Shown here piece by piece: positions 2,893 through 22,206 of a DNA stretch of 64,000 nucleotides (position 1 is its first letter; the number at the start of each line of letters is the position of its first letter). The stretch is from Curvularia clavata. Its lineage: Eukaryota. A model generated the notes under the pieces. That model searched no databases, was not told the origin of the DNA, and saw nothing but the letters and a program-made list of their open reading frames with translations. The DNA lies in contig CP089277.1 of NCBI GenBank assembly GCA_023920165.1, positions 1,302,001-1,366,000 of the forward strand. The letters run 5' to 3'. The position numbers were made by a program, and so were the translations under genes.

Positions 2893-3815
2893 TTTGATAA
2901 GATTTTGTTTGGTGGATTATGGAAGTATAGAACTTGTTGGCTGAACTTGCTTCAAGTTAAAAGAAATTCGTAGACGGATTGTATTTGAAAAGGTGGAAAA
3001 ATGATCCTGGGTATCTTGATAATTTTCTCTTCATACTGCAGCATCTATATAACTGCAACCAATATCTCTTTCTTCAAACGTTGGTGTTCACGGTGTTTGC
3101 GGTCACGGGCGGGGATCCGACGGAACGAAGACCGAAAATGGAAGCCCGCTCAAGGAACCTGCGGCTCTACGCTCTCGCGTCCGGTAACCGCCCTGTAGCT
3201 GAGTGTTTTACCTACACAAGGCCAAACGGCCCGGCAAGTCAGGTTTCCGTTTCAGATGTCGTGGTTCAGATGCCGGCTGTGGTGCGGAGCTCGGAAGGGG
3301 AGGGGCCATTGTTGCCCCGCCGAGTACCAGGAATATCTTGAAGTCTCGACGATGGAGATGCGGCGACAAGTCCGATATCATCTCGGCATCTATTCTTGTA
3401 ACTCAGATTTCTTAAATTAATATCTGATTTTCAATAGCTTGTAGGAGATACTGATGATGTACAGTGACGAGCGGTAGTTGCCGGCGCGATGCAGGAACAT
3501 TGTCGGATCTATCTATAGCGCAGGTTCCACAAGCAGCCTGTGACCATCTTCTTCGCTACCTCCTATGAGCTGCCTGCAGTCGGGGAAAATCATTCGCCAA
3601 ACGCAATGCTTTGTCGCAAGGCGCTTAACAGCACTCAACGTCTTTGTAGGGAGGATGGAGGCGGTGACGGCGGCTGAACACGATGCGGCATCGGCATCTA
3701 CCTAGTATCGATAGCGCACGTCACTCCTCCGTGTCTGCCCCACTGCGTCTTTCAACTTCACGTATACCACACAGAGTATTACTAACATTGCGACTAACGT
3801 TGCTCAAAAACAAAG

Positions 3816-4990
3816 ATGCATATTCTTGTAAGTTGATTCTTTGTCTTATGATAGTCAATGGCATCGACTGATCATACAGTAGGTCACTAACGACGATGGA
3901 CCGCCATCGGACCAGTCCTCGCCGTATGTCCACTCGCTGGTGTCAACACTGCAAAAGCATGGCCACACCGTGTCGGTTGTTCTCCCCCACACGCAGAGAT
4001 CTTGGATAGGCAAGGCGCATCTTGTTGGCAAGTCGGTATGAAGCCCCTTTTGCTTTCTCAAGGCAGCCCTTGCTCTCTATATGAGTCCCATTTCGTCTGG
4101 CTCTGACATGGTCGCAGATACAACCAACATATTACCGCCCCGAACCCCTCCAAATAAGTCCAGACGGCCGCCTTACTAACCATGGAACAACTCACAACTC
4201 GCCGCTTCCGCCCTCCTCCAACGAGGAAGAATGGGTGCTGGTCGATTCCACACCCGCGTCGTGCGTGCAGATTGGTCTGTACCACTACTTCACCGAGCGT
4301 GGACCAATTGACCTGGTCGTGTCTGGCCCCAACTACGGACGCAATAGCACTGCCATCTTCTCCCTCTCATCGGGTACCATTGGTGGCGCAATGGAGGCAG
4401 CGGTATGCGGCATGAAGAGCATAGCACTCAGCTACGCCTTCTTCGATCGCAATCATGACGCCAAGATCATCAGCGGCGCCAGCGAGCTCAGCGCAAAGCT
4501 CATACAATACCTGTGGGACAACTGGGATAAGAACACGCATCTGTACACGGTCAATGTGCCTTTGGTGGAGAATGTGGGAGAGCGCAAGATCCTATGGACC
4601 AACATGCTGCAAAACACGTGGAAGAGCGGAAGCTGCTTCCAGGTTGTCGAAGTGCCTCCCGAGGCGGATGACAAGGAGGCAGACATTGAGGGCCAGATAC
4701 GCAAGCAAGAGGAGAAGCTGGGCAAGAAGGAACTCAGATCTCATTCAGATATTCAGGGTGGAGCAAGCGGTACGGATTCAGGAAGGGACACGCCGTCGAG
4801 CCAGGTCCATTCGAGATATACGCACAAGCACTTCAAGTGGGCGCCCTCGTTCAAGGACGTGTACCAGAGTGTAGAGGAGAGTGAGCCGGGCAATGATGGT
4901 TGGGCTGTCGCGCAGGGATACACTAGTGTTACTCCGCTGCGGGCCAACTTTATGCACGTTAACGGATTTGAGGGGGAGATTAAACTTTAG
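3816..4990 (+). CDS. SurE-family 5'/3'-nucleotidase/phosphatase, 345 aa; exons 3816-3827, 3883-4035, 4118-4990
   Basis: The spliced N-terminus MHILVTNDDGPPS carries the SurE NDDG motif. Also present: PHTQRSWIGK, DLVVSGPNYGRN, SSGTIGGAMEA and SVTPL. Canonical GT..CTRAY..AG introns. Confidence 0.9.
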
Positions 4991-18423: not shown

Positions 18424-19231
18424 GGCTGCAGTGTTGCGCGCGGTGGCCGGCCGGAGAGGTGACTGGGGTATGTGCCCACGATGGTGTGAGTGAGATGAGT
18501 TGCGGGGCTGCGATCGCTACCAAAATGAGGGGTTGTATAACACGGGCATCTAAGAGGGAGCGCAGGCGCAGGCGGAAGGGTCAAGCAGTCAGTGCGGCAG
18601 CTACAGGTGAGTGCGCATGGCCGACATGAGCCTGTCCGCATGTGCCTGCCCTGTCATGCTCACGCCTCGTCCCGCTGCGTCTACTAGTATCTTCTTGGCT
18701 ATCAACGTCATCCGACTACCGCACAAAATGCTCACACGTATAAGCTTATTTTTTTGGCGCCTGTAGCCTCATGACACGAACATGAAGCTATTCGGCGCAG
18801 TGATCTTGGGGTAACAAAAATGTTTACGTCTCTTTAGATTATATGCTTAAGTTGTAAGGCAACAGCGACGAAATCACGTTCATGGGACCGAAGGCTAAAT
18901 CAAAACATACATTTGCTACCATGCTGAAGAAGTTCCAGTCCCGCCTCCCGATCAAGCAGAGCAGGGCAGACATGAAACTACATTGTGCAATCTGATAGGT
19001 CACAGCATATTAGCTTCGCCAGTGAGCTTACCTGTGTCACCTTGAAGAGTCAGGTGTTAGCTGCTAATTATAATACATGTATAAAAGACCCGAAAAACCG
19101 CCTATGCTGCCAAGTGTGCAGGAAGGTTCTGGTGACTATCAGAAATCACCCTACAGCCGACAAGTAGAGAGATGGGACCATCAAAGTACTAATCCAAGAT
19201 CTACGCTGTGGCTGTCGTCATGCTCAAGCGT

Positions 19232-21258
19232 TTAAGCCGGGGGTGGGGGTGGGGGAGGGACATCGCTAGGCGGCGGGGGAGGAGGTGCATCACCCGGAGG
19301 AGGTGGTGGGGGTGGAGCTGCAGCGCCAGGTGGGGGTGGGAGAGGACTGCCAGTAGAGCCGTAGCCCTGATAAAGAGGCATAAGACCAGGTGGAGGGCCA
19401 GAAGGAGGTGGAGGAGCATCGTAGCCTGGAGCACCATAGGCACCGGGAGCACCCATTCCAGCACTCTGGTCATAGCCGTAGCTGCCGTAACCATAGCCAG
19501 CACCAGCTTGAGCAGCTGGGGCACCAGCGGCCCATGGAGCTGCGCCGCTGTTGGCGCCGTAACCTTGATCGTATGACTGGCCAGCGCGACCGCCTCCACT
19601 GGCCCAAGGCGGGGGAGCAGAAGAGTGACTATCGCCACGACCACGGTCGCCATCGTTACGAGCCCAAGGTGCAGAACCGCCAGTAGGACCACGCTCCCAA
19701 GGCTTGAGAGGGCGTTCGCCTCCATGACTGTCGCCACCAGCGGCACCGTTGTTGTATTCGAGCGCGCCACGAGGCTGTCCGCCACCGCCACCAATCTCAG
19801 CCATAAATGCATCCAACTCGTTCGCTGGGGCGCCACCAATTTGTCCTTGATTGCGGTCGCCGTACCGACTGTCGTTGCGCCAGGGCTGTCCGACCTTGCG
19901 ATCGGGACAATCACGAGCCATATGACCAGCTTGGCCACAGGTACGACAGATGATGCTGGCAGTGAAATTCTGCTTCTGGGGGCAGTCGTATTTGCGGTGA
20001 CCAATCTCTCCACAGTTCTGGCAGGCCTGGTTCTCGTCGTCTCGGAGGGTACCGTTGAGGGCGGCGAGCTCGCGGAGTTGGTTGCGCTTGAGTTCGTTCT
20101 GACCTTCGGGGATAGAAGCAGCCTACAAACGGTTAGTATTGCTGCCGGTGTTGAAATAGAGGAAAACTTACAGTCTCAATGACGTTGTGGATAAGTTTCT
20201 TGGCCTTGTTGACCTTCTCTTCCGTATCGGCCATGATTAAGCAGTGCAAGTCTTCTTCTTGATTACTGGTGTGAGCTGCATCCGAACGTCCCTTGCCCTC
20301 CTTTACGGAGCCCTTGCCACGAATGGCAATCTTTGCCTGGGATTCTGTCTCCATCTTTTTCAGCGTGTTGCCACGGGGGCCAATAAGCAATCCAACTGTT
20401 AGTGCAAAAAGCTGCAATTAGTTTATGATCAAAAAATAATGTGTGAGCAAAAGGTTGGGTTAGTGACATAGCTGTACTGCAGGTGCCACTAGATGCGAAC
20501 GAACATCCAGCAGTCTGAGCAGGCTGGTCAAGACAAAGGCTAGGGGAAGGTAAGAAGTCAGAGGGGTTAGTTCCATACTGAAGTTAATTTCCGGGTAATC
20601 ATTGACAGGGACATAGACTTTCTCCTGTGTCTTAGTAGGGCGTCTGTAATCCGCTGGGGGGTGATAGTTAGGGAGCGTTTTCATCGCTTTTTCGACGAGC
20701 TTGTGGCGCTCATCCTCGAGGCGCTTGCGGTAGCGGAACTCGCGGGTGTTGACACGGCGACCGAAGTTATCATACTGGGGCGCAGGTGAGGGTGACCTAT
20801 GCCAGTTAGCCATGAATCGGATGTAGGCAAGCAGCAAACACATACCTGTCACCATCAGCTGGAACAACATCGTTGATCTTCAGCTTTTGGGTGATCTCCT
20901 CGATACGCAAATGCAGAGTGTAGGCGTCGAGTTGTTCAGTAGTCATGGCCGAGTAAATGGCTGTAGGCAAACCCATCAGACCGGCAGCCTTGTTTTCGCT
21001 CGCGTCGCCCCATCGGTTTCGCTTCTTGCGCTGTCGCGGAGCATCAGAGCCTACAGCTCGAACGTTAGCAGGGGGTGTGTAATAACATGGAAGACTGTAC
21101 ATACTGCGCTCAGGGCTGCGACCGCGCTTCAGCTCAGAGAGGCCTTCAGCGGGTGCGGAGGGATTATAGCCACCATCGTCATCACCGCCTCCGATGCGAC
21201 GGCGCGTTCCTAGAGGAATGTTGTTAGATCCGGTGATCCCTTGATTGCGCCAGGACAT
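19232..21258 (-). CDS. msl5: Branch-point binding protein BBP/SF1, 563 aa; exons 21258-21105, 21050-20846, 20796-20579, 20395-20172, 20122-19232
   Basis: [23 protein letters not shown] domain [22 protein letters not shown]2 [19 protein letters not shown]; two CCHC knuckles; Pro-rich tail. Confidence 0.96.
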
Positions 21259-22206
21259 GGTTGCGGCTGTCGGTTGCGGCTGGCGAGAGGTTTGGTGTGT
21301 GAGAGGTGTCGAGAAAGTCGCGGAGGCAAAGCTTTAGGCTAAGCAGGGAGCGCGCTTATCCGTTTTGGGCTATCTCGCGTTTGTAGGCTGACCTCGATAT
21401 GGTACTTTCTTGCATTACACAACGTCCACGTGGCTGCGTATTTTCTATTTCCAATTCACATGCGCATTCACACCGGATTATATTGCCTCGCGCTTTTCGT
21501 CTCTGATATTTCTGCGAATGATCCTTATTCGTAACATCTGGACGCAATCACGTTGAGAAACCACACGAGCCAAAGGACTGGGGCTTCAATCGACAGGCTC
21601 GTGTACTTGTCTAGTATATTTTAGTTGCATTACTTTCTCTCTAGGTCTTATATCGCATTAAAGGCTTTCATGTTGGATACACACCTACAGACACTGGCAC
21701 AAATGTCTACTTACTTCACTTTATTTGGCTTGGGCGGTAAAGCAAAAAAAATCAAAAAAAAATCACAGAGAACATGGCTATTTCTAGTACAAGTACCATC
21801 ATCTTATCAATATGAAAACCGTGTTTTCTGGATACCGCGTTTGTAGGAAACTTGTGTGCAGTCGGTCTCTCCGCTTGTTTTATTGCGTTTTCTAATGCAA
21901 CAGATTGTCCAGTACCGTTGACCGTTAACACTCGCACATTCATGCTTCGTGAAACCGAGAACATATCTTGTTTCTGTCGGCTTCCAATGTGCTCCCAGAA
22001 GACATCATGTTTTAGTGTCACAACATTTCTAAGCAAGTACCAAACTCGTCATAGGCTACCCCTCATTAAACCCCACTTTATCAGCATCACTGCCGCTCGA
22101 CCAAAACCCGCGGCTACACTAGCACGCCATCGACATCACAGCCAAGAGATAAATCCCTCCAACTGTCCCTTCCTTCCATCCTAGTACACTCGTTGCTATC
22201 ACGAAA

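Follow-up and report, generated by a model that had tools for sequence, protein, structure and literature searches.

How the cellular level of the branch-point-binding protein (BBP) is held, and whether the branch-point motif itself might serve this end within the gene for the protein, are questions raised by a locus of the filamentous fungus Curvularia clavata. Its msl5/BBP/SF1 gene lies on the reverse strand at positions 19232..21258 of the stretch of 64,000 nucleotides analysed here (the window; all positions are those of its forward strand), and comprises 5 exons coding for 563 aa. A sequence-only reading had singled out its third intron, given as 183 nt against about 50 nt for the others, as packed with sites for the gene's own product, and had suggested that surplus BBP loads on these decoys and drives retention or mis-splicing in a negative feedback loop. 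The dimensions proved correct: intron 3 runs from 20578 to 20396, and the four introns measure 54, 49, 183 and 49 nt.

SR and hnRNP proteins are well-known cases of self-regulation through unproductive splicing. In the open-licence literature, a scope outside which subscription journals and most supplements fall, we came across no description of this intron or of autoregulation by SF1/BBP. Term searches of the portions available of PMC6547761, PMC12746065, PMC13004596, PMC2377449, PMC3064769 and PMC3061054 gave no mention of SF1/BBP autoregulation, and BBP names had no match in the accessible supplements of PMC3925392, PMC8942408 and PMC4046813, where tables keyed by gene identifiers would be missed.

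The protein and its predicted ligand

The encoded protein combines an SF1 helix-hairpin, a KH-QUA2 module, two zinc knuckles and a proline-rich tail, as delineated by a Pfam run on a relative (P0013). The nearest named relatives are branchpoint-bridging proteins of Pleosporales, such as those of Curvularia, Alternaria and Bipolaris, and the top PDB matches are the KH and QUA2 parts of yeast Msl5 (4wal/4wan). The residues of Msl5 that read UACUAAC are known from its crystal structure, as described in PMC4338336, and are largely kept in the window protein: N249, K252, R253, Q255, L256, L259, T265-R267, R172, I189, R190 and K196 are all retained, among them the Lys-Arg pair to which the high affinity of the yeast type is attributed, while L169, R177 and P205 are replaced by I, K and A. 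The window BBP should therefore bind ACUAAC, a ligand predicted from structure.

The same genome encodes a second protein with a KHDC4/BBP-type KH domain (L088:1498-1716; G000 C3), which is probably the KHDC4 orthologue. A search of the genome for a STAR dimer domain or QKI-type protein returned none, the search being a weak one in which the controls gave no match either.

Architecture of intron 3

Intron 3 (20396..20578, reverse strand) interrupts codon 193 in phase 1, five codons ahead of the GPRG loop, and thus splits the KH domain just before its GxxG motif, as the sequence-only reading had stated. By a structure-match alignment, on which the numbering depends, codon 193 aligns with yeast Val165, a residue reported to pack on the branch RNA (PMC4338336). 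The motif positions of that reading (three ACTAAC, one ACTAAT, and CTGAC, TTGAC and CTCAC) were likewise all recovered, and its several alternative AGs number eight.

The motif RCTAAY occurs at intron positions 8, 115, 157 and 176, and no other cluster on the two strands of the window is as dense (4 within 178 nt here, against 3 in the next best). Even without its donor hexamer and final 12 nt, the intron contains three ACTAAY; only 3 of 20,000 dinucleotide shuffles reached that number (mean 0.13; p = 0.00015). The full yeast TACTAAC is not represented, as A or C, and never T, precedes each of the four sites. Elsewhere in the window, three ACTAAC lie within about 110 nt on the forward strand (3781-3891), and these resemble branch sites belonging to short introns next to them, close to where another gene has its 5' end.

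From its 5' end, the intron opens with a weak donor, GTATGG (20573..20578), that lacks T at +6 and follows an exonic A. It is succeeded at +8 by ACTAAC (20566..20571), whose branch A at +12 is too near the donor for a normal branch site, because in control introns of the same gene from related loci the donor-to-branch distance has a median of 40-41 nt and minima of 20 and 37. Next come a second site, CTGAC at 20561-57, and a C/U-rich, G-poor tract (together 20532..20565); in most relatives the second site is CTAAC, spaced by 8-9 nt. From its sequence, this 5' cluster with its tract looks like a branch site and pyrimidine tract lacking an acceptor, and SF1 and U2AF65 are reported to bind such a combination jointly (PMC3061054). 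A central, GC-richer segment (20464..20530) folds into a stem-loop, at the 3' foot of which stands the middle ACTAAC (20459..20464). The 3' part holds ACTAAT (20417..20422), 22 nt from the acceptor, with its predicted branch point at 20418; a proximal CAG (20412..20414), 6 nt after the branch A of that site; and a terminal ACTAAC (20403-398) that overlaps the acceptor CAG (together 20396..20403).

The cluster of branch-like motifs described earlier is real, with the correction that one member, most likely the ACTAAT at 20422-17, appears from its placement to be the true branch site and not a decoy. Two further candidates, TTGAC at 20531 and CTCAC at 20447, are present and are weak ones: human SF1 is reported not to bind a UCUCAC site until it is mutated to UCUAAC (PMC3061054).

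Both predicted unproductive outcomes were reproduced at the level of the reading frame. Retention brings in the TAA at 20462, which lies within the middle ACTAAC, and yields a product of 231 aa ending ahead of the RNA-binding loop; the CAG 16 nt before the acceptor, if used, shifts the frame to a stop at 20265-63.

Conservation of intron 3 across filamentous fungi

Relatives were collected with part of exon 3 as query, and the best 80 of 138 confirmed relatives were used. Intron 3 could be excised in 71 of these loci and in the window, giving 61 distinct introns, which, the loci being related, are not 61 independent cases. As controls, and as the source of the fungal branch distances, we used introns 2 (45 found) and 4 (41 found) of these loci, 86 in total, with median lengths of 51 and 52 nt. 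The orthologous introns are 128-247 nt long, with a median of 187.

Their most constant element is the donor-adjacent motif: an RCTAAY starts at +5, +8 or +9 in 61/61, against 0/86 control introns. The first 45 nt hold 2-4 CTAAY in 53/61, mostly spaced by 8-9 nt, and CTAAY is preferred to CTGAY by 299:11 in intron 3, compared with 29:15 and 25:11 in the two control sets, the antisense form appearing only twice. The donor is uniformly poor, with T at +6 in 0/61 versus 32/45 and 35/41 of the controls, A as the preceding exon base in 61/61, and a crude U1 match of 5.25 against 8.32 and 6.46. The tract after the 5' cluster is on average 78% pyrimidine and its first AG lies at a median distance of 50 nt. 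Further inside, a middle CTAAY is found in 47/61 and a middle RCTAAY in 39/61.

The 3' end is equally unusual. An RCTRAY stands 20-32 nt from the acceptor in 61/61, whereas this distance is mostly 8-14 nt in the controls, and an AG follows 5-7 nt past the branch site in 58/61, compared with at least 8 nt in 71/71 controls with a CTRAY. CTAA occurs within the last 8 nt of 45/61 introns (16/61 are without a terminal motif) versus 0/86 controls, and the acceptor reads AAG in 35/61 versus 2/86. On retention, an in-frame stop is met inside the intron in 60/61 and 25 nt past it in the remaining one.

Nine loci stood outside these counts. Four of them (L028, L044, L047, L061) also carry a donor-adjacent RCTAAY, and one (L065) has only ACTGAC, at +17. 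L023 ends too early, and L003 and L022, being without any introns, are transcript-like. At L024 (L024:1700-1720), which is genomic, intron 3 has been lost; intron 1 of that locus seems long, at about 150 nt, and offers two candidate acceptors and no ACTAAC array.

By best tblastn match with a 5% margin, a crude assignment for which 13/99 reference proteins were omitted (a fused and several mis-modelled ones), 40/61 introns could be placed in a nearest class, six classes of Pezizomycotina being represented: Dothideomycetes 14, Leotiomycetes 11, Sordariomycetes 7, Eurotiomycetes 3, Pezizomycetes 3 and Lecanoromycetes 2, the labels being those to which the named reference genera presumably belong. 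Four-fold degenerate sites of exon 3 are only 24-67% identical to the window in 59 loci, so the fixed motif is not due to recent descent. Comparison of these loci thus identifies a long, weakly signalled BBP intron that is kept among distant filamentous fungi. The arrangement is also tied to the BBP gene, since neither half of it is enriched elsewhere in the genome: the 5' pattern gave 6 matches against 12 for the control, the other five not intron-like by eye, and the 3' pattern 19 against 21. A wider BBP regulon marked by either pattern was rejected on the same counts.

As a separate observation, 12/99 named public BBP models contain intron-derived residues between INF and GLLIGPRG, inside the KH domain (P0005, P0050, P0117, P0120, P0140, P0142, P0152, P0178, P0191, P0199, P0206 and P0228); through the strings SMIANP and TKV in them, the donor and acceptor motifs described above can be recognised in genera that are named.

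The central hairpin

The central segment of the window intron folds with z of -2.18, 6 of 200 shuffles being as stable, and the corresponding segment, which was picked after seeing folds, has z below -1 in 47/61 orthologous introns and above 0 in 5. Folding of the whole intron gave no clear signal (median z -0.77; 17/61 above 0). In a group of 16 sequences picked by likeness, compensatory double changes occur at 8/15 pairs, and 91% of cells pair versus at most 59% for slid controls; covariation thus lends moderate support to the hairpin, the structure being derived from the same alignment. A 12-sequence Pleosporales alignment returned the same hairpin with double changes in only 3/27 pairs.

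Intron 3 is frequently retained in RNA

RNA-type contigs of the gene were examined in 4 of the 24 runs listed, namely X1 and X2 (one study), X6 (another study) and X10, of which X10 is RNA on record and the others are presumed RNA. Depths are contig means, and such contigs drop rare variants and joints; they cannot rank parts of a gene, and differences in depth between its 5' and 3' portions were therefore left out. All four predicted junctions, and no others among the contig pieces listed, were found in 4/4 runs. Intron 3 is the only one of the four introns also seen unspliced, in 3/4 runs: a contig of 243 nt (20366-20608) in X1, X2 and X6 spans the whole intron with 30 nt on each side, flanks one letter under the bridging threshold used. 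Its depth of 174.4, 250.7 and 179.4 compares with 496, 162.5 and 442 for the spliced junction, so that retention by contig depth is roughly 26, 61 and 29%, respectively. X10 showed the spliced form only, at a depth of 7.8. DNA carry-over does not explain the retained contig, because introns 1, 2 and 4 are without cover, the bin depths there being fully accounted for by exon parts, and the flank at 21349-21600 has a depth of only 0-4.7. Two contigs from other fungi (L034 and L050, one each) similarly lack introns 1, 2 and 4 and keep intron 3; genomic kin of L050 possess the three introns, and the contigs may represent retained-intron RNA, the alternative being loss of three introns in DNA. X1, X2 and X6, and not X10, have T for G at 21151 (forward strand), probably a strain difference in exon 1.

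Constitutive splicing, and absence of the motifs from orthologous introns, had been named beforehand as findings that would speak against regulation. The intron is not constitutively spliced, its retained form being present in 3/4 runs, and the donor-adjacent site persists in 61/61 orthologues. Regarding the form of the unproductive product, the proposal stood for retention; its second route, through the -16 acceptor, left no joint among the contigs of the 4 runs, which drop rare variants.

That the main unproductive route is nonetheless the proximal AG (-16 in the window), an internal donor or a nested intron, and not retention, we consider hardly credible. The near-universal AG would shift the frame in 49/58 introns, its product could be hidden by nonsense-mediated decay (NMD), and a branch site-acceptor distance of about 1 nt reported for Yarrowia (PMC2911113) implies that such an AG can be usable; yet no such joint was found in the 4 runs, and in 9/58 introns the shift is in frame, 8 of these being stop-free. 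Internal GT donors are not kept among 12 close relatives, and only 7/61 introns have an AG 30 nt or less from the +8 site. In a stwintron, splicing begins at a donor and acceptor that lie inside the intron and are conserved; this candidate was rejected, as the internal GT sites vary in those 12 relatives and the 4 runs contain no intermediate joint. Skipping of exon 3 to an AG after the +8 site was likewise discarded, there being no joint in the 4 runs and rarely an AG nearby.

Retention could also be the by-product of a slow, weak intron kept for some other reason, be it a different KH protein, a small RNA concealed within it or mere inheritance with no function. Retained introns are frequent in fungi (PMC4379411), the L088 protein offers a possible alternative reader, and L024 has dispensed with the intron altogether. 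Against this, intron 3 had no Rfam match (a search of 19000-22000 returned one chance-level match, E 2.2, outside the intron), and the motif holds its position over six classes, in contrast to the turnover of synonymous sites and of the sequence forming the hairpin. We regard this explanation as highly doubtful.

A circular contig and a cryptic acceptor in exon 1

A contig from a related fungus (L005:1-1068) has a 120-nt terminal repeat, corresponding to a circle of 948 nt, in which the end of exon 4 is joined to exon 1 right after CTAAC...TAG, introns 1 and 2 are removed and intron 3 is kept. In the kin of L005, the end of exon 4 is followed by GTAAGT (L012), and the CTAAC...TAG is seen in L015-L017. 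The sequence of this single contig is consistent with a back-spliced RNA circle. The equivalent branch-plus-TAG element of the window lies at 21210..21228 (reverse strand). Among 51 distinct orthologous stretches, the window included, the acceptor AG is present in 8 and CTAAC plus AG in 4; because the AG occurs in only 8/51, the back-splice acceptor is not part of the conserved core. Neither a back-joint nor use of the cryptic acceptor was found in the 4 runs of the window organism. The 5' contig of X1 ends at 21212, 3 nt upstream of the cryptic acceptor, with no cover over 21213-21269, for which filtered records may account.

These data bear on the idea that the retained RNA is itself a functional product, either a nuclear BBP sponge, linear or circular, or an mRNA for the 231-aa protein, which would keep the U2AF65-binding N-terminus and be unable to bind RNA. 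The high steady-state retention, the L005 circle with intron 3 inside it and the precedents of Gomafu and circMbl (PMC3116199; PMC9352392) are in its favour. However, the circle is one contig, its acceptor AG is confined to 8/51 stretches and no back-joint appeared in the 4 runs; furthermore, the retention stop ranges over intron positions 17 to 227, so no peptide is conserved. We hold such a role to be decidedly improbable.

A negative-feedback model for intron 3

Taken as a whole, we consider it probable that intron 3 is a conserved negative-feedback switch, in which BBP bound beside the weak donor and the likewise weak acceptor would keep the intron in. At low BBP only the best site, the branch site 22 nt from the end, would be occupied, and the intron would be spliced. 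When BBP is abundant, it would also occupy the +8 cluster and the terminal site, probably together with U2AF65/Mud2 on the C/U tract, and would hinder recognition of the donor and the AG, so that the intron stays in. The retained RNA would be detained in the nucleus or degraded by NMD, and less BBP would be made. Through the hairpin, the 183-nt intron is probably brought close to the usual 50-nt span, with the motifs left single-stranded. In vitro, tandem UACUAAC is reported to bind SF1 tightly and to slow splicing (PMC3116199). The observed retention of 26-61% equally fits poor NMD or plain slow splicing.

The chief rival to BBP feedback is that intron 3 senses early-spliceosome capacity (U2 snRNP, U2AF or the Sub2 helicase), or that the extra sites enhance a weak donor, BBP being no repressor or even promoting splicing. 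The branch motif is also the sequence with which U2 snRNA pairs, and since U2 reads the same motif, sequence alone cannot name its reader; this identity is a point for the rival. Moreover, Msl5-Mud2 is reported to bridge to U1 at the donor (PMC4338336), so a +8 site could aid U1, and at mammalian ACUAA sites SF1 activates while QKI represses (PMC11483029; PMC13004596). On the other hand, a sensor of general capacity sits uneasily with an arrangement found in the BBP gene and unenriched elsewhere (6 vs 12 and 19 vs 21 matches against the control); sites over the AG and abutting the donor would fit steric blocking better than enhancement, and intron 3 is heavily retained despite intact sites. 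On balance this alternative appears unlikely.

A bolder form of the feedback reading is that, since the origin of filamentous ascomycetes, BBP has gated both ends of its own intron as a repressor, and that the retained RNA, circular in some lineages, also stores surplus BBP; this is conceivable, and we advance it only tentatively.

Relationship to known regulatory systems

The gene encodes an RNA-binding splicing factor, its contigs include an unproductive isoform with a premature stop, and the regulated region carries a conserved copy of the protein's own motif, the specificity being that reported for yeast Msl5 (PMC4338336). With factor dependence and decay or nuclear detention as predictions of the model, msl5 intron 3 is a probable member of the autoregulatory unproductive splicing systems of the SR-gene type. 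Its nearest fungal parallel is SRSF5/srp2 of Neurospora and Aspergillus (PMC4379411), a splicing-factor gene whose unusually long intron, at a conserved position, is retained with in-frame stops and in Neurospora srp2 is an NMD target. In contrast to srp2, an SR-protein gene with intron sequence described there as not notably conserved among Aspergilli and with NMD demonstrated, BBP is a core branch-point factor whose motif keeps a constant place at either splice site of its own intron, and NMD would be one of the fates proposed in the model. Yra1 of S. cerevisiae, as cited in PMC2911113, is another fungal RNA-binding protein limiting itself through retention of a weak intron, as we propose for BBP; it is, however, an export factor, and its control is described as depending on exon size and Edc3 decay and not on an array of its own motif (PMC2911113).

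Arrays of non-branching branch-point motifs read by SF1/BBP are also described for Gomafu/MIAT (PMC3116199; PMC4255692), a separate vertebrate lncRNA that acts in trans with the full UACUAAC, whereas the msl5 array is in cis, is mostly RCUAAC and has BBP as its predicted reader. QKI, a KH-QUA2 protein, blocks splicing from two neighbouring branch-like ACUAA sites (PMC13004596), much as proposed here, but does so by competing with SF1 on other genes, while BBP would repress its own. Finally, the L005 circle resembles circMbl, where a splicing-regulator locus yields level-buffering circles (PMC9352392), with the difference that msl5 provides one contig and a back-splice acceptor confined to a few close relatives.

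General implications

The intron has a practical bearing on annotation, as residues derived from it occur in the KH domain of 12/99 BBP models from named public entries. Being short and fixed in position, it also offers a natural reporter, in genetically easy fungi, for asking whether the place at which BBP binds can make it a repressor, what sets its level and how decoy branch sites act. If the bolder form of the feedback reading is true, intron 3 would use the branch-point code itself to keep the first step of spliceosome assembly in homeostasis, with BBP in a role opposite to its textbook one.
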